Of a stretch of DNA of 64,000 nucleotides, positions 24,021-51,864 are shown piece after piece. The position numbers were made by a program, and so were the translations under genes. The notes beneath the pieces were generated by a model. It was not told the DNA's origin, did no database searches, and was given only the letters and a program-made list of their open reading frames with translations. The first letter of the stretch is position 1. The number at the start of each line of letters is the position of its first letter. Location: NCBI RefSeq assembly GCF_003018255.1, contig NZ_CP027440.1. One strand, written 5' to 3'. The DNA comes from Escherichia coli. Its GTDB lineage: Bacteria; Pseudomonadota; Gammaproteobacteria; Enterobacterales; Enterobacteriaceae.

Positions 24021-25301
24021 ATGAGCAGCAATAAAGAGTTAATGCAGCGCCGTAGTCAGGCAGTTCCTCGTGGCGTTGGGCAAATTCACCCGATTTTCGC
24101 TGACCGCGCGGAAAACTGCCGGGTGTGGGACGTTGAAGGCCGTGAGTTTCTTGATTTCGCGGGCGGGATTGCGGTGCTCAATACCGGGCACCTGCATCCG
24201 AAAGTGGTTGCGGCGGTGGAAGCGCAGTTGAAAAAGCTGTCGCACACCTGCTTCCAGGTGCTGGCTTACGAACCGTATCTGGAGCTGTGCGAGATTATGA
24301 ATCAGAAGGTGCCGGGAGATTTCGCCAAAAAAACGCTGCTGGTAACGACCGGTTCTGAAGCGGTGGAAAACGCGGTGAAAATCGCCCGCGCCGCCACCAA
24401 ACGCAGCGGGACCATCGCCTTTAGCGGTGCATATCACGGGCGTACGCACTACACGTTGGCGCTGACCGGCAAGGTGAATCCGTACTCTGCGGGCATGGGA
24501 CTGATGCCTGGGCACGTTTATCGCGCGCTTTATCCTTGCCCGCTGCACGGCATCAGTGAAGATGACGCTATCGCCAGCATCCACCGGATCTTTAAAAATG
24601 ACGCTGCGCCGGAAGATATCGCCGCCATCGTGATTGAGCCGGTTCAGGGCGAAGGCGGTTTCTACGCCGCGACGCCAGCCTTTATGCAGCGTTTACGCGC
24701 GCTGTGTGACGAGCACGGGATCATGCTGATTGCCGATGAAGTGCAGAGCGGCGCGGGGCGTACCGGCACGCTGTTTGCGATGGAGCAGATGGGCGTTGCG
24801 CCGGATCTTACCACCTTTGCGAAATCGATCGCGGGCGGCTTCCCGCTGGCGGGCGTCACCGGGCGCGCGGAAGTGATGGATGCCGTCGCTCCAGGCGGTC
24901 TGGGCGGCACCTATGCCGGTAACCCGATTGCCTGCGTGGCAGCGCTGGAAGTGTTAAAGGTATTCGAGCAGGAAAATCTGCTGCAAAAAGCCAACGACCT
25001 GGGGCATAAGCTGAAAGACGGATTGCTGGCGATAGCCGAAAAACACCCGGAGATCGGCGATGTACGCGGGCTGGGAGCGATGATTGCCATCGAGCTGTTT
25101 GAAGATGGCGATCACAGCAAACCGGACGCCAAACTCACCGCCGAGATCGTGGCGCGTGCCCGCGATAAAGGCCTGATTCTTCTCTCCTGCGGCCCGTATT
25201 ACAACGTGCTGCGCATCCTTGTACCGCTCACCATTGAAGACGCTCAGATCCGTCAGGGTCTGGAAATCATCAGCCAGTGTTTTGATGAGGCGAAGCAGTA
25301 G
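24021..25301 (+). CDS. gabT: 4-aminobutyrate aminotransferase (PLP-dependent)
   Basis: 426-aa class-III aminotransferase; gab operon context. Confidence 0.95.
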   Translation: MSSNKELMQRRSQAVPRGVGQIHPIFADRAENCRVWDVEGREFLDFAGGIAVLNTGHLHPKVVAAVEAQLKKLSHTCFQVLAYEPYLELCEIMNQKVPGDFAKKTLLVTTGSEAVENAVKIARAATKRSGTIAFSGAYHGRTHYTLALTGKVNPYSAGMGLMPGHVYRALYPCPLHGISEDDAIASIHRIFKNDAAPEDIAAIVIEPVQGEGGFYAATPAFMQRLRALCDEHGIMLIADEVQSGAGRTGTLFAMEQMGVAPDLTTFAKSIAGGFPLAGVTGRAEVMDAVAPGGLGGTYAGNPIACVAALEVLKVFEQENLLQKANDLGHKLKDGLLAIAEKHPEIGDVRGLGAMIAIELFEDGDHSKPDAKLTAEIVARARDKGLILLSCGPYYNVLRILVPLTIEDAQIRQGLEIISQCFDEAKQ

Positions 25302-25309
25302 ATCCGTAC

Positions 25310-25452
25310 CCATGCCGGAGGCGACGCTGCGCGTCTTGTCCGGCCTACGCGAATCCAGGTCGGATAAAGCGTTTACGCTGCATCCGACAATCTGTACGTG
25401 AACAGGAATAAATCTATGTCGGCCGGATAAGGCGGAGCCGCTCTCCGGTAAA
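25310..25452. repeat. REP/BIME palindromic units in the gabT-gabP intergenic region
   Basis: GCCGGAGGCGACGCTGCGCGTCTTGTCCGGCCTACG, GTCGGATAAAGCGTTTACGCTGCATCCGACA, TGTCGGCCGGATAAGGCGGAGCCGC: typical REP consensus stems. Confidence 0.75.
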
Positions 25453-25538
25453 AAGAACCAATAACAATTACACGCGTGACCCGACGCGGGAAATGTCGGG
25501 GCGCTCTCCCAAGTGACACACTTTCGAGAGGATTCAGG

Positions 25539-26939
25539 ATGGGGCAATCATCGCAACCACATGAGTTAGGCGGCGGGCTGAAGTCACGCCACGTCACCAT
25601 GTTGTCTATTGCCGGTGTTATCGGCGCAAGTCTGTTTGTCGGTTCCAGCGTCGCCATCGCCGAAGCGGGCCCGGCGGTATTACTGGCCTATCTGTTCGCC
25701 GGATTACTGGTGGTTATGATTATGCGGATGTTGGCGGAAATGGCGGTTGCCACGCCCGATACCGGTTCGTTTTCCACCTATGCCGACAAGGCAATTGGCC
25801 GCTGGGCGGGTTATACCATCGGCTGGCTGTACTGGTGGTTTTGGGTACTGGTTATCCCGCTGGAAGCCAACATCGCCGCCATGATCCTGCACTCGTGGGT
25901 TCCAGGCATTCCCATCTGGTTATTTTCCCTGGTCATTACCCTCGCCTTGACTGGCAGTAATTTATTAAGCGTTAAAAACTACGGCGAATTTGAGTTCTGG
26001 CTGGCGCTGTGCAAAGTCATCGCTATCCTGGCCTTTATTTTCCTTGGTGCAGTCGCAATTAGCGGTTTTTACCCTTATGCCGAAGTGAGCGGGATCTCAA
26101 GATTGTGGGATAGCGGCGGCTTTATGCCCAACGGCTTCGGCGCAGTATTAAGCGCGATGTTGATCACCATGTTCTCGTTTATGGGCGCAGAAATTGTCAC
26201 CATTGCCGCCGCGGAATCTGACACGCCGGAAAAACATATTGTCCGCGCCACCAACTCGGTTATCTGGCGTATTTCTATCTTCTATTTATGCTCTATTTTT
26301 GTCGTGGTGGCATTAATACCGTGGAATATGCCGGGGCTGAAAGCCGTTGGATCTTATCGCTCGGTTCTGGAGTTGCTCAATATTCCCCATGCGAAATTAA
26401 TCATGGACTGCGTGATATTACTTTCCGTAACCAGTTGCCTGAACTCGGCGCTGTATACCGCTTCCAGAATGCTCTACTCCTTAAGCCGTCGCGGTGATGC
26501 TCCCGCGGTAATGGGTAAAATCAACCGCAGTAAAACCCCGTATGTGGCGGTATTACTCTCGACCGGTGCGGCATTTTTAACGGTGGTGGTGAATTATTAC
26601 GCGCCTGCGAAAGTGTTTAAATTTCTGATCGATAGCTCCGGCGCTATCGCCCTGCTGGTTTATTTAGTCATTGCCGTTTCACAATTGCGGATGCGCAAAA
26701 TTCTGCGAGCAGAAGGAAGCGAAATTCGCCTGCGGATGTGGCTTTATCCGTGGCTCACCTGGCTGGTCATCGGTTTTATAACCTTTGTGTTGGTAGTGAT
26801 GCTATTCCGCCCGGCGCAACAGTTAGAAGTGATTTCCACCGGTTTATTAGCGATAGGGATAATCTGTACCGTGCCAATTATGGCTCGCTGGAAAAAGCTG
26901 GTATTGTGGCAAAAAACACCCGTTCATAATACGCGCTAA
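25539..26939 (+). CDS. gabP: GABA permease (APC family)
   Basis: Track ORF 25476-26939; start at the internal Met MGQSSQPHELGGGLKSRHV gives 466 aa; 12-TM amino-acid permease. Confidence 0.93.
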   Translation: MGQSSQPHELGGGLKSRHVTMLSIAGVIGASLFVGSSVAIAEAGPAVLLAYLFAGLLVVMIMRMLAEMAVATPDTGSFSTYADKAIGRWAGYTIGWLYWWFWVLVIPLEANIAAMILHSWVPGIPIWLFSLVITLALTGSNLLSVKNYGEFEFWLALCKVIAILAFIFLGAVAISGFYPYAEVSGISRLWDSGGFMPNGFGAVLSAMLITMFSFMGAEIVTIAAAESDTPEKHIVRATNSVIWRISIFYLCSIFVVVALIPWNMPGLKAVGSYRSVLELLNIPHAKLIMDCVILLSVTSCLNSALYTASRMLYSLSRRGDAPAVMGKINRSKTPYVAVLLSTGAAFLTVVVNYYAPAKVFKFLIDSSGAIALLVYLVIAVSQLRMRKILRAEGSEIRLRMWLYPWLTWLVIGFITFVLVVMLFRPAQQLEVISTGLLAIGIICTVPIMARWKKLVLWQKTPVHNTR

Positions 26940-39415: not shown

Positions 39416-39493
39416 TTCGGGCGGATAAGGCGTTTTTGCCTCATCCGCCGCTCTGTACACAATGCCTGATGCGACGCTGGTGCGTCTTATCAT
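39416..39493. repeat. REP elements downstream of proX
   Basis: GGGCGGATAAGGCGTTTTTGCCTCATCCGCC and GCCTGATGCGACGCTGGTGCGTCTTATCA palindromic units. Confidence 0.75.
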
Positions 39494-39600
39494 ACCTACA
39501 AACCACACCGCACATTTCAACAATCTATCTTTCATCCCATATTCATCAACATCCGCTATTATTGATTTCCAGCTTAATCATCACCTGATGAACAAAAATA

Positions 39601-45446: not shown

Positions 45447-45453
45447 GGTTGTC

Positions 45454-45480
45454 AAAGGGAGCTGCGGCTCCCTTTTTATT
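45454..45480 (+). terminator. Rho-independent terminator after emrB
   Basis: GGGAGC-tgcg-GCTCCC followed by TTTTTATTT. Confidence 0.7.
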
Positions 45481-45703
45481 TGCTCATTTTGCAAACGGTT
45501 GTTTTATCCACTCATTCGGTGTATCTTTTCGCCGCCCCAAACTCTTCCATTCACCATTAACCGGTTCTGAGCATTCGCTCAGGTTGTTAATTCTCTTTTT
45601 CTTTCGCCCTCGCTTTCGCGGGTGATACTCACATTTTTCTTTTAACCCCATAACTCGCACCCTCGCGGGCGTACATTTATTACACACAAAATAATGGATT
45701 ATT

Positions 45704-46411
45704 ATGAATACCCAACGAAAATACGGGAGAACCTGGCATTATCCTTTCTCCCCCGGCACCACCAGCGATGACCGCATTAATGCCGATTACTGGCAGGATT
45801 TACAGGCCATCACGCAATTGGTGCACACAGAAAAACTCGACGGTGAAAATAACTGCCTTAACCGCTACGGCGTGTTTGCCCGTTCCCATGCCGCGCCTAC
45901 GCAGTCGGCATGGACCTATAAAATTCGCCAACGCTGGCAACTGCTGAAAAACGATCTCGGCGATCTGGAGTTGTTTGGTGAAAATCTTTATGCCGTGCAT
46001 TCGATTGAATATCGCGCCCTGGAGCAGGATTTTTATCTGTTTGCCGTTCGCTGCCAGGATATGTGGCTGAGCTGGGAAGAGGTGCAGTTTTACGCCGCTC
46101 TGTTTGATTTCCCCTGCGTTCCCGAAATCTCCGGCCCGCAACCGGGGAATGATGAAAAAAGCTGGCAACGTGATTTTCTGGCGCTGACCAATGCGCGCGG
46201 CGCGTTCGATCCCTGGGATACGCAAACCGGGCAACCCTGTACGCTGGAAGGCATTGTCAGCAGGAATCGTGATGCGTTTTCCGTCGCTGACTTTTCGCAT
46301 AACGTCTTCAAGTATGTGCGCAAAAATCATGTCAAAATCACCGTCCACTGGAAACGACACTGGCAACGGGCGCGGATGGCCCATGAGTTCGATTATGGAG
46401 AACAGTCATGA
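45704..46411 (+). CDS. Minimal ATP-dependent RNA ligase (Rnl2-like nucleotidyltransferase domain only), putative
   Basis: 235-aa ORF with covalent nucleotidyltransferase motifs at Rnl2-like spacing: I EKLDGEN (K44), III LFGENLY (E93), IIIa DFYLFAV, IV EGIVSR (E182), [11 protein letters not shown] (K203/K207). Stop overlaps the downstream start (ATGA). Confidence 0.7.
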
Positions 46412-47520
46412 TTTGGCAGCTTACCGACGACAAACGCTGGTCGGCGCTACGTCAGCGTTTTAGCTGGGTTGAGGAGATGCATCACACGCCACAAGACCCG
46501 GAGCATCATGGTGAAGGTGACGTCGGCGTGCATACCGAAATGGTGCTGAACGCCCTCGTTACTCAGCCAGAATTCCAGCAACTCCCCGCTCAACAGCAGG
46601 AAGTTTTATGGGCGGCGGCGTTATTGCATGATGTTGAAAAGCGCAGCACTACCGTGCAGGAAAACGGACGTATTCAGTCGCCTGGCCATGCTCGTCGGGG
46701 CGAACTGACGGCCCGACAAATTTTATGGCGCGATATCCCAACGCCGTTCGTGCTACGCGAGCAAATTGTTGCGCTGGTGCGTCTGCATGGGTTACCGCTA
46801 TGGTTACTGGAACGTCCGGAACCGGAGCGTTTGCTGCTCACGGCTGCAATGCGCATCGACACGCGTCTGCTCGCTTTGCTTGCTCGTGCCGATCTGCTTG
46901 GTCGCCAAAGCCCGGATCAGCAATCAATGCTGGAACGCATCGATCTGTTCGAGCTGTTTTGCCATGAGCAACAATGCTGGGGAAAAATGCGCCCGTTCGT
47001 TTCTGATTCCGCACGCTGGCACTACCTGACTCATGAGCAAAGTTCTCCTGATTTTGTTCCCTGGGAGGCTGAACCTTTTGAGGTTATTTTGCTGTGTGGC
47101 TTACCGGGTATGGGCAAAGATCGCTATATCAGTGAACAGTGCCAGGGAATGGACGTTATCAGCCTTGATGATATGCGGCGGCGAATCAATGCCAGTCCGG
47201 ACGACAAAACCGCCACCGGGCGTATTGTGCAACAGGCAAAAGAAGAGGCGCGCGTTTTTTTACGCCAGAAAAAGCCGTTCATCTGGAATGCAACGAACAT
47301 TACCCGCCAGCTGCGCAGCCAGCTCATCAGTCTGTTTACGGCTTACGGCGCACGAGTAAAAATCGTTTATCTGGAAGTGCCATGGGCGCAATGGAAGCAG
47401 CAAAATGCCAGACGCGAGTATGCAGTTCCTGAAGCGGTCGTGATGCGGATGGCCTCAAGGCTGGAAGTTCCTCAACCTGATGAAGCACATAGCGTGGAAT
47501 ATCGGATGACTGACAGGTAA
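46408..47520 (+). CDS. HD-domain phosphoesterase fused to P-loop polynucleotide 5'-kinase (HD-Pnk-like end-healing enzyme), putative
   Basis: 370-aa ORF. N-terminal HD motifs (H33/H34, LLHDVEK with H74-D75, further His/Asp at H127, D162); C-terminal Walker A GLPGMGKD (231-238) followed by DD and [11 protein letters not shown] segments typical of AAA_33/Pnk kinases. Confidence 0.7.
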
Positions 47521-47525
47521 CAAAA

Positions 47526-47552
47526 GCCGGGCGGTGTTTTCACCAGCCCGGC
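47526..47552. terminator. Bidirectional terminator between the HD-Pnk gene and convergent luxS
   Basis: GCCGGGCGGTG-tttt-CACCaGCCCGGC long stem followed by a T-rich tail. Confidence 0.65.
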
Positions 47553-47570
47553 CTCTTCTGCTTAAACTGA

Positions 47571-48155: not shown

Positions 48156-48229
48156 GAAAGACGCGCATTTGTTATCATCATCCCTGAATTCAGAGATGAA
48201 ATTTTGGCCACTCACGAGTGGCCTTTTTC
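48156..48229 (+). ncRNA. micA: Hfq-dependent small RNA MicA (SraD)
   Basis: GAAAGACGCGCATTTGTTATCATCATCCCTGAATTCAGAGATGAAATTTT followed by the terminator GGCCACTCACGAGTGGCC-TTTTT; lies between luxS and gshA on the opposite strand to both. Confidence 0.85.
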
Positions 48230-51137: not shown

Positions 51138-51214
51138 TGGTGCATCCGGGAGGATTCGAACCTCCGACCGCTCGGTTCGTAGCCGAGTACTCTATCCAGC
51201 TGAGCTACGGATGC
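51138..51214 (-). tRNA. argQ: tRNA-Arg (anticodon ACG)
   Basis: 77-nt exact reverse complement of GCATCCGTAGCTCAGCTGGATAGAGTACTCGGCTACGAACCGAGCGGTCGGAGGTTCGAATCCTCCCGGATGCACCA. Confidence 0.9.
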
Positions 51215-51277
51215 ATTGGGAAAATTTATTTTACTGCTGATATTGATATCGCTACTAAAGCCATATCAAGTAAGAGA

Positions 51278-51354
51278 TGGTGCATCCGGGAGGATTCGAA
51301 CCTCCGACCGCTCGGTTCGTAGCCGAGTACTCTATCCAGCTGAGCTACGGATGC
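51278..51354 (-). tRNA. argZ: tRNA-Arg (anticodon ACG)
   Basis: Identical 77-nt copy; the 63-nt spacer is near-identical to the next spacer. Confidence 0.9.
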
Positions 51355-51416
51355 ATCGGGAAATTTATTTTACTGCTGATATTGATACCGCTACTAAAGC
51401 CATATCAAGTAAGAGA

Positions 51417-51493
51417 TGGTGCATCCGGGAGGATTCGAACCTCCGACCGCTCGGTTCGTAGCCGAGTACTCTATCCAGCTGAGCTACGGATGC
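51417..51493 (-). tRNA. argY: tRNA-Arg (anticodon ACG)
   Basis: Identical 77-nt copy. Confidence 0.9.
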
Positions 51494-51557
51494 ATCTGGA
51501 AACTTACTTTACTGCAGATTTTTTGATACCGCTACTAAAGCCGTATCAAGTAAGAGA

Positions 51558-51691
51558 TGGTGCATCCGGGAGGATTACTCGCCTTGCGGCTCGCCCTTCG
51601 GGCCGTTGCTAAAGCAACGTTATCCTCCCTGGTGCCTGCGGTTATTACCGCCACCTCTTCCATACCTTCATCGCTGAAGGTACGTAGAATA
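51558..51691 (-). repeat. tRNA-Arg 3'-end-derived structured element (copy B)
   Basis: Paralogue of copy A (TGGTGCATCCGGGAGGAT + divergent structured ~115 nt), located inside the 198-nt argY-argV spacer. Confidence 0.55.
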
Positions 51692-51768
51692 TGGTGCATC
51701 CGGGAGGATTCGAACCTCCGACCGCTCGGTTCGTAGCCGAGTACTCTATCCAGCTGAGCTACGGATGC
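51692..51768 (-). tRNA. argV: tRNA-Arg (anticodon ACG)
   Basis: Identical 77-nt copy, 3 nt from serV. Confidence 0.9.
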
Positions 51769-51771
51769 AAA

Positions 51772-51864
51772 TGGCGGTGAGGCGGGGATTCGAACCCCGG
51801 ATGCAGCTTTTGACCGCATACTCCCTTAGCAGGGGAGCGCCTTCAGCCTCTCGGCCACCTCACC
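51772..51864 (-). tRNA. serV: tRNA-Ser (anticodon GCU), long variable arm
   Basis: 93-nt reverse complement of GGTGAGGTGGCCGAGAGGCTGAAGGCGCTCCCCTGCTAAGGGAGTATGCGGTCAAAAGCTGCATCCGGGGTTCGAATCCCCGCCTCACCGCCA. Confidence 0.9.

Follow-up and report, generated by a model that had tools for sequence, protein, structure and literature searches.

A probable HD-Pnk end-healing enzyme and its ligase-like neighbour in a strain-variable cassette at the emrB-luxS site of Escherichia coli

A 64,000-nucleotide (nt) stretch of Escherichia coli DNA (contig NZ_CP027440.1, assembly GCF_003018255.1; "the window" hereafter denotes this whole stretch) contains, between emrB and luxS, a cassette of two overlapping genes. 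We propose that the second gene, open reading frame 2 (ORF2; 46408..47520, plus strand), very probably encodes an orthologue of HD-Pnk, an enzyme that heals nucleic-acid ends by means of two domains. Its product of 370 amino acids (aa) is the E. coli member of a described family and not a new enzyme type, and it is probably active. The first gene, ORF1 (45704..46411, plus strand), encodes a 235-aa ligase-like covalent nucleotidyltransferase (Pfam RNA_ligase, E 4.4e-28), which lies upstream in translational coupling with ORF2 and is presumed to be its sealing partner. The cassette as a whole is a strain-variable chromosomal accessory module at emrB-luxS, and it is under purifying selection.

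Results

ORF2 and the HD-Pnk of Runella slithyformis

An initial annotation of the window, made from the sequence alone, had described ORF2 as an N-terminal HD phosphoesterase fused to a C-terminal Pnk-type P-loop kinase. This description was borne out, and every residue that it listed is present. ORF2 is intact from ATG to TAA, its ATG overlapping the ORF1 stop codon by 4 nt (ATGA), and a GGAG sits 8 nt upstream of that ATG (a 7-nt gap). The start codon was accepted as correct because the N-terminus (MIWQLT...) aligns with homologues from residue 1-2. The full-length protein was matched by 562 cluster representatives at E<=1e-30, which is not chance. ORFs on the opposite strand over the cassette (e.g. 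45800-46384) were set aside, as the plus-strand ORFs have overwhelming homology support.

The AlphaFold2 (AF2) model of ORF2, built with 84 homologues, reached a predicted local distance difference test score (pLDDT) of 97 and a predicted template modelling score of 0.94. Its N-terminal domain is all-helical and ends near residue 210; an alpha/beta P-loop domain follows from around residue 222. No two-domain HD-Pnk structure was found among the Protein Data Bank (PDB) entries searched by sequence, profile and fold, and a literature search by the E. coli accessions returned no paper on the E. coli protein.

The prototype of the family is the Runella slithyformis HD-Pnk, which PMC6097658, citing Munir & Shuman 2017 (J Bacteriol 199:e00739-16), describes as a bifunctional 2',3'-phosphoesterase/5'-OH kinase; the same source states that a ligase-like ORF lies ahead of the HD-Pnk gene and overlaps it with its 3' end. 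Runella was absent from the 120 best relatives of a Dyadobacter homologue, and its locus was found via Tpt1: E. coli KptA led to PDB 7kw8 (R16, H17 and R64 as published), from there to the native 183-aa protein (P0490) and finally to CP002859.1. The locus comprises Tpt1, MTase-HIT, a spacer of approximately 152 nt, a 238-aa ORF of the RNA_ligase family and an overlapping 368-aa AAA_33 ORF. We took the last of these to be HD-Pnk because the locus shows the published layout (PMC6097658). It is 52% identical to ORF2 over 368 aa (E 3e-138) without large gaps, at a total length of 368 versus 370 aa. The two proteins have in common the domain order, the HD ligands, the GKD Walker A, the NATN segment and a Gln at position 332. 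In both organisms the ligase-like ORF stands immediately upstream and overlaps the HD-Pnk gene, by 20 nt in Runella versus 4 nt in E. coli. The E. coli cassette differs in that neither Tpt1 nor MTase-HIT, the other members of the four-gene cluster in Runella, adjoins it; in K-12, kptA is elsewhere in the genome.

The 52% identity to Runella HD-Pnk, together with the same description in the literature, supports the proposal of the initial annotation that ORF2 would be an end-healing enzyme built unlike T4 and Clostridium Pnkp. Its further statement, that an HD domain replaces the DxDxT or calcineurin-type phosphatase and that the domain order is inverted, agreed with the Pfam results, the HD matches within the family and the AF2 model. 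The novelty that it implied did not hold, since the HD-kinase architecture has been published since at least 2007 for Deinococcus radiodurans DRB0098 (PMC1997131) and since 2017 for Runella.

Residue conservation was counted over 141 representatives of 50%-identity clusters and, in addition, over 16 close homologues. H34, H42, H74, D75, H94, H127, D162, K237, D254, R257, R303 and R336 were each kept in 135-141 of the 141 representatives.

The HD phosphoesterase domain

The HD domain covers approximately residues 1-215 (46408..47052, plus strand) and is all-helical; its assignment draws on conservation, Pfam HD matches in the family, profile and fold. The metal ligands named in the initial annotation, H34, H74-D75, H94, H127 and D162, were invariant in the close homologues and kept in 139-141 representatives. 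The codons of the H74-D75 dyad in LLHDVEK lie at 46627..46632 (plus strand), and the two residues occur in 139 and 140 representatives, respectively. Concerning the pair H33/H34, both residues are present; H34 is conserved and H33 is variable (H/Y/W/F). Beyond the residues listed earlier, H42, E36 and K78 were also near-invariant.

This domain is most closely related to the HD domain found in class II CCA-adding enzymes and poly(A) polymerases, represented by E. coli Cca and the Aquifex enzyme 3wfo-3wfs. The tRNA nucleotidyltransferase structures 3wfo/3wfp were matched over the HD part both by the family profile (E 8e-11) and by the predicted fold. NCBIfam gave matches of the N-terminal domain to the HD region of CCA-adding enzymes (E 1.1e-5) and to HDIG (E 1.3e-3), both under the curated cut-offs. 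The nucleotidyltransferase head domain of those enzymes is missing from ORF2. The HD domain of E. coli Cca is a Ni2+-dependent 2',3'-cyclic phosphodiesterase and phosphatase. The resemblance probably accounts for the name "poly(A) polymerase" given to some homologues, which, like "putative nucleotidyltransferase with HDIG domain" for others, is uninformative or misleading.

The kinase domain

The P-loop polynucleotide kinase domain spans residues 222-370 (47071..47517, plus strand) and was recognised by Pfam AAA_33 (E 6.6e-32, residues 226-355), by profile and by fold. Despite its name, AAA_33 is a kinase-type family. The family profile matched PDB entries of PSTK (1e-17), the Clostridium thermocellum Pnkp kinase (2e-15), T4 Pnk (3e-11) and mammalian PNKP (9e-7). 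In Foldseek, the best matches of the kinase part were 4gp6/4jt2 (C. thermocellum Pnkp kinase), with template modelling scores of 0.71-0.74 on the target and root-mean-square deviations of 2.4-3.2 Å; mammalian PNKP, Mucorales RNA 5'-OH kinases, T4 Pnk and PSTK followed. An unrelated NTPase, which the initial annotation had named as an outcome contradicting its proposal, was not what these searches returned: the closest solved sequences and folds are polynucleotide or RNA kinases. Membership in the AAA+ ATPases was likewise rejected, as the fold and profile matches listed are P-loop kinases of the Pnk, PSTK and PFK-2 kinds and include no AAA+ protein.

In the alignment with 4gp6, K237, D238, D254, R257, N294 and R336 of ORF2 stand opposite K21, S22, D38, R41, D78 and R120 of the C. 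thermocellum enzyme. In the segment D254...R257 (SLDDMRR; 47167..47178, plus strand), D254 is the equivalent of the C. thermocellum general base Asp38 and R257 that of Arg41, and each of the two residues was kept in 138/141 representatives. The "DD segment" noted near residue 255 corresponds to D254-D255, in which D254 is conserved and D255 is variable. An 11-residue segment noted at about 292-302 was also found and spans residues 293-303. It begins with WNATN (residues 293-297; 47284..47298, plus strand), where N294 takes the place of Asp78 in the VVDATN of C. thermocellum.

Coupling between the Walker A residue 238 and residue 294

The Walker A motif GLPGMGKD (residues 231-238; 47098..47121, plus strand) is present as first described, with K237 in 140/141 representatives. 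Its Asp had been called unusual. This did not stand, because Asp is the family majority (110/141) and occurs also in the active Runella enzyme (GLPGTGKD). Residue 238 was D in 110, S in 21, N in 5 and T in 3 of the representatives.

The identity of residue 238 was tightly coupled to that of residue 294. In 116 representatives residue 238 was acidic or an amide and residue 294 was not Asp; in 18, Ser/Thr at 238 accompanied Asp at 294; the mixed combinations numbered 6 and 1 (contingency table [[116,1],[6,18]], Fisher p 1e-16). The family accordingly occurs in two states. Most members, E. coli and Runella among them, combine GKD with NATN; a minority, among them D. radiodurans (GKS with WDATT), combines GK[ST] with DATN. 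The Ser and Asp minority state was scattered over 16 places in a crude tree built by the unweighted pair group method with arithmetic mean. From these sequence patterns, we infer that the P-loop has taken over from the Walker-B-like DATN position the carboxylate that serves the Mg2+ site. The coupled swap, Ser to Asp in the P-loop and Asp to Asn in WNATN, may be the sign of a Mg2+ site that is rewired in most kinases of the HD-Pnk family.

The ligase-like partner ORF1

ORF1 carries motif I TEKLDGEN with K44, GEN at 92-94, EGIV at 182-185 and KYVRK at 203-207, and it has no extra C-terminal or OB domain. K44, E93-N94, E182-G183 and K203 were invariant in 20 homologues, and K207 was kept in ≥90%. 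The AF2 model (pLDDT 84) matched best the PDB folds of Naegleria Rnl, T4 Rnl2, archaeal Rnl3 and the ligase domain of Trl1. The only PDB matches by sequence or profile, to hemocyanin and capsid proteins, were dismissed as chance matches summed over repeats, and structure prediction established the ligase fold instead. ORF1 is 57% identical to the ligase-like protein of Runella (E 3e-98) and 35% identical to DRB0100 of D. radiodurans (E 6e-26).

Gene linkage was counted over the best 80 genome loci, among which Runella does not figure. The ligase-like gene was directly upstream of the HD-Pnk gene in 80/80 of these loci, from Enterobacterales and Bacteroidota. Tpt1 lay within a few kb of the pair in 3/80 (Bacteroidota L063, L071 and L076) and also in Runella (L084), and MTase-HIT was found only in Runella. 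The Runella four-gene cluster is therefore not the general arrangement, as Tpt1 is near the pair in so few loci.

NCBIfam gave no match for ORF1 and has no model that covers either cassette protein. The PADLOC protein models, which represent known anti-phage defence systems, matched neither ORF1 nor ORF2 at E<=0.01.

Distribution and selection

The cassette is present in 999/5426 complete E. coli genomes (~18%), always on the chromosome. A match to >=80% of the 2.1-kb query at >=90% identity was obtained in 998 genomes; this is a nucleotide match and does not measure ORF integrity. The empty, K-12-like site was found in 4312/5426 genomes, among them those of K-12, of one B strain and of one O157:H7 strain, which leaves about 115 complete E. 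coli genomes with some third state at emrB-luxS. The allele of the window is in the minority, with 7 genomes at >=99% identity and 989 at 95-99%.

The arrangement emrB/cassette/luxS was also seen in Klebsiella spallanzanii, Enterobacter and Superficieibacter, and in Kosakonia and Phytobacter emrB is upstream of the cassette. The dN/dS ratio (nonsynonymous to synonymous substitution rates) of ORF1 and ORF2 was 0.04-0.17, both within Escherichia and against other genera. Bacteroidota homologues of ORF2 show 53-59% identity, a high level between phyla so far apart and one that suggests horizontal spread. In a plasmid collection, the HD-Pnk family was found mainly on large secondary replicons. It is rare in phage records, where otherwise only the kinase domain was matched; LR756500.1, a 462-kb uncultured phage, has a full-length HD-Pnk homologue at 24519-25559 with 34% identity over 94% of ORF2. 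The databases also contain many near-identical shorter ORF2 entries of 245-341 aa, some with >100 member sequences (P0024, P0025, P0036 and P0053). Such entries may stem from contig ends, from start codons called differently or from genuine truncation.

The insertion site and flanking signals

The cassette lies in an accessory segment of 2118 nt (45448..47565) that replaces the 57-nt emrB-luxS spacer of K-12. In the alignment with K-12, the two sequences part immediately past the emrB stop codon (45447) and match again from 47566, shortly before the luxS stop. The cassette borders showed neither repeats nor mobility genes, and the GC content of the cassette, 52-54%, is like that of the flanks. 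The stretch 45450-47570 is 100% identical to strain 2014C-3338. The annotated gene order is ygaZ-ygaH-emrR-emrA-emrB, "RNA ligase family protein", "ATP-binding protein" and convergent luxS. Beyond luxS follow gshA, yqaA, yqaB, four tRNA-Arg, tRNA-Ser and csrA.

Directly 3' of emrB, a terminator scan found a terminator-like hairpin with a T-run (45454..45475, plus strand; dG -15.7 kcal/mol, z -4.1). It is part of a 257-nt intergenic leader/promoter region (45447..45703, plus strand) in which a nine-locus alignment showed blocks conserved across Enterobacteriaceae genera. One conserved leader block, GGTTGTTTTATC...GTGTATCTTT, might be the promoter. No consensus sigma-70 site was found on the plus strand of the intergenic region, and 45447-45703 matched no Rfam family. 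The leader also contains a hairpin, CTGAGC-loop-GCTCAG (45566-45582, plus strand; dG -12.2 kcal/mol, z -3.6), whose stem is kept and whose loop length varies. A CTG-N10-CAG match at 45567 was considered as a LexA box and rejected in favour of this hairpin, because the distance between its arms differs from genus to genus and the arms nonetheless remain complementary. ORF2 and luxS converge, and a strong hairpin that lies between them (47526..47552; dG -22.3 kcal/mol, z -4.5, with 0/200 shuffles folding as well) is probably their shared terminator.

Elsewhere in the window, Rfam identified features ordinary for this region of E. coli: tmRNA (ssrA; 8805-9167), a tRNA (17052-17124), an naRNA4 (REP-type) element (39419-39496), the small RNA MicA between luxS and gshA (48156-48227), and four identical-scoring tRNAs plus one more (51141-51864).

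Discussion

Here, we propose a model of end healing by ORF2 on the basis of orthology with the characterised enzymes. The C-terminal P-loop domain would phosphorylate 5'-OH polynucleotide ends with the gamma-phosphate of an NTP. In this scheme NTP-Mg2+ would be bound by K237 and D238, the 5'-OH would have D254 as its general base, and the phosphates would be contacted by R257, R303 and R336. The HD domain would hold a transition metal via H34/H42, H74-D75, H94, H127 and D162 and would hydrolyse 2',3'-cyclic-phosphate, 3'-phosphate and 2'-phosphate ends to hydroxyls. The predicted products, 5'-PO4 and 3'-OH, are the ends needed by a classic ATP-dependent ligase, and ORF1 would presumably seal them. 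As the natural substrate we lean toward broken RNA, such as tRNA or rRNA cut by toxins or under stress, because ORF1 has an affinity to RNA ligases and the pair is occasionally linked to Tpt1.

The healing of both ends before ligation is a logic that HD-Pnk has in common with C. thermocellum and T4 Pnkp, which share with ORF2 the kinase fold, the P-loop Lys, the general-base Asp and the Arg residues. They differ in build. In T4 and Clostridium Pnkp the kinase is N-terminal, and the phosphatase is of the calcineurin type (C. thermocellum) or a DxDxT acylphosphatase (T4); C. thermocellum Pnkp has its own ligase-like domain and a partner, Hen1. Classification of ORF2 as a Pnkp of the T4/Clostridium type was rejected, as NCBIfam bacter_Pnkp scored 32.9 bits against a cut-off of 750 bits and matched the kinase part only. 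An enzyme of phage RM378 is presented in PMC1997131, citing Blondal et al. 2005, as a Pnk kinase with an HD-type 3'-phosphatase. By this description, it joins the same two kinds of domain as ORF2. Its domain order is said to be reversed, with the kinase first.

The more distant relative DRB0098 has the same order of HD domain and kinase and is 29% identical to ORF2 over the full length (E 5e-33). Its 5'-OH kinase activity was shown experimentally, and it was noted for "an unusual domain architecture" (Blasius et al. 2007, PMC1997131). The D. radiodurans operon also pairs the kinase with a ligase-like protein, DRB0100, and here a macro/PARG-like gene, DRB0099, is inserted between them. DRB0098 is encoded on a megaplasmid, is radiation-induced, is extended by insertions to 413 aa and has GKS with WDATT, the minority state of the family, in contrast to the chromosomal, 370-aa ORF2 with GKD and WNATN.

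Several results weigh against the assignment of ORF2 or against a complete heal-and-seal function of the cassette. The domain calls by hidden Markov models that the initial annotation had suggested gave a clear kinase, with the AAA_33 match reported above; Pfam HD matched ORF2 alone weakly (E 0.021, below threshold). We regard the HD assignment as secure because the same model matches 70/84 aligned family members at E<=0.001 (best 3.9e-13). NCBIfam gave ORF2 partial matches only, all far below curated cut-offs. Position 332 is Gln in ORF2 versus R371 in DRB0098, whose mutation lowers kinase activity; the difference is probably harmless, since the active Runella enzyme also has Gln there. In 2007, HD-dependent phosphatase activity could not be attributed to DRB0098 (PMC1997131). 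As for sealing, the ligase-like protein of Runella self-adenylylates and sealed none of the 3'-OH/5'-PO4 substrates tried (PMC6097658), DRB0100 self-adenylylates with no ligation observed (PMC1997131), and a heal-and-seal pathway is unproven for the characterised relatives.

The failure of both characterised ORF1 orthologues to seal ordinary 3'-OH/5'-PO4 breaks raises the further thought that the true substrate of HD-Pnk and its ligase may be a special end or a specific RNA, such as a toxin-cleaved tRNA or rRNA. That the cassette, as a strain-variable repair module, uses a novel sealing chemistry or substrate appears unlikely to us. The E. coli carrier strains would make the questions of sealing, substrate and Mg2+ site genetically tractable. 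A somewhat stronger case, though still an unlikely one, is that the same activities serve DNA-break repair and act on 3'-phosphate/5'-OH DNA ends after oxidative, radiation or nuclease damage. Deinococcus genetics favour this: the homologous D. radiodurans operon is radiation-induced, and DR_B0098 is reported in PMC6300522, citing Schmier & Shuman 2018, to be needed against ionising radiation and mitomycin C. The DRB0098 kinase was moreover assayed on a DNA oligonucleotide (PMC1997131). The nearest relatives of ORF1 by family and fold (Pfam RNA_ligase; Naegleria Rnl, T4 Rnl2, Rnl3 and Trl1) are nevertheless RNA ligases, Tpt1, which clusters with the pair in Runella and 3/80 loci, is an RNA 2'-phosphotransferase, and no LexA box precedes the cassette, where the sole CTG-N10-CAG match is the hairpin of variable spacing. 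In favour of the DNA role, the Runella HD-Pnk reportedly dephosphorylates 3'-phosphate ends of DNA as well.

Two other explanations appear very improbable. The kinase domain could act on a metabolite or a specific tRNA-linked group in the style of PSTK, gluconate kinase or 6-phosphofructo-2-kinase, with the HD domain hydrolysing a nucleotide signal; PSTK is in fact the best PDB family-profile match, slightly ahead of the Pnkp kinase, PFKFB kinases are among the fold matches, and RefSeq offers only "ATP-binding protein" or "AAA family ATPase" as product names for ORF2 and its homologues. Set against this are the 52% identity to an enzyme reported in PMC6097658 to phosphorylate 5'-OH polynucleotides, the Pnk-specific D254/R257 aligned with D38/R41 of C. 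thermocellum Pnkp, the best folds (Pnkp, PNKP and T4 Pnk) and the obligate linkage to the ligase-like gene in all 80 loci. The cassette could also be a decaying, non-functional remnant in E. coli, maybe on its way out, as its absence from 4312 complete genomes (~80% of strains) and the shorter database variants, which may be truncations or contig ends, would allow. Decay fits poorly with the low dN/dS, with catalytic residues that are all intact, and with the same emrB-luxS position in K. spallanzanii, Kosakonia, Phytobacter, Enterobacter and Superficieibacter; the 998 genomes with a nearly complete match also speak against it, a match that says nothing on ORF integrity. We retain end healing by an HD-Pnk, with RNA as the favoured substrate, as the reading of ORF2.

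The evidence supports renaming ORF2 as HD-Pnk instead of the "ATP-binding protein", "AAA family ATPase" or "poly(A) polymerase" of current records. E. coli has been stated to lack a polynucleotide kinase (PMC1997131). This would hold for laboratory strains only, because about 18% of the complete genomes of the species carry a gene for a predicted polynucleotide kinase-phosphatase. The natural presence/absence polymorphism of the cassette in E. coli would offer an easy genetic system for distinguishing its roles in RNA and DNA repair.

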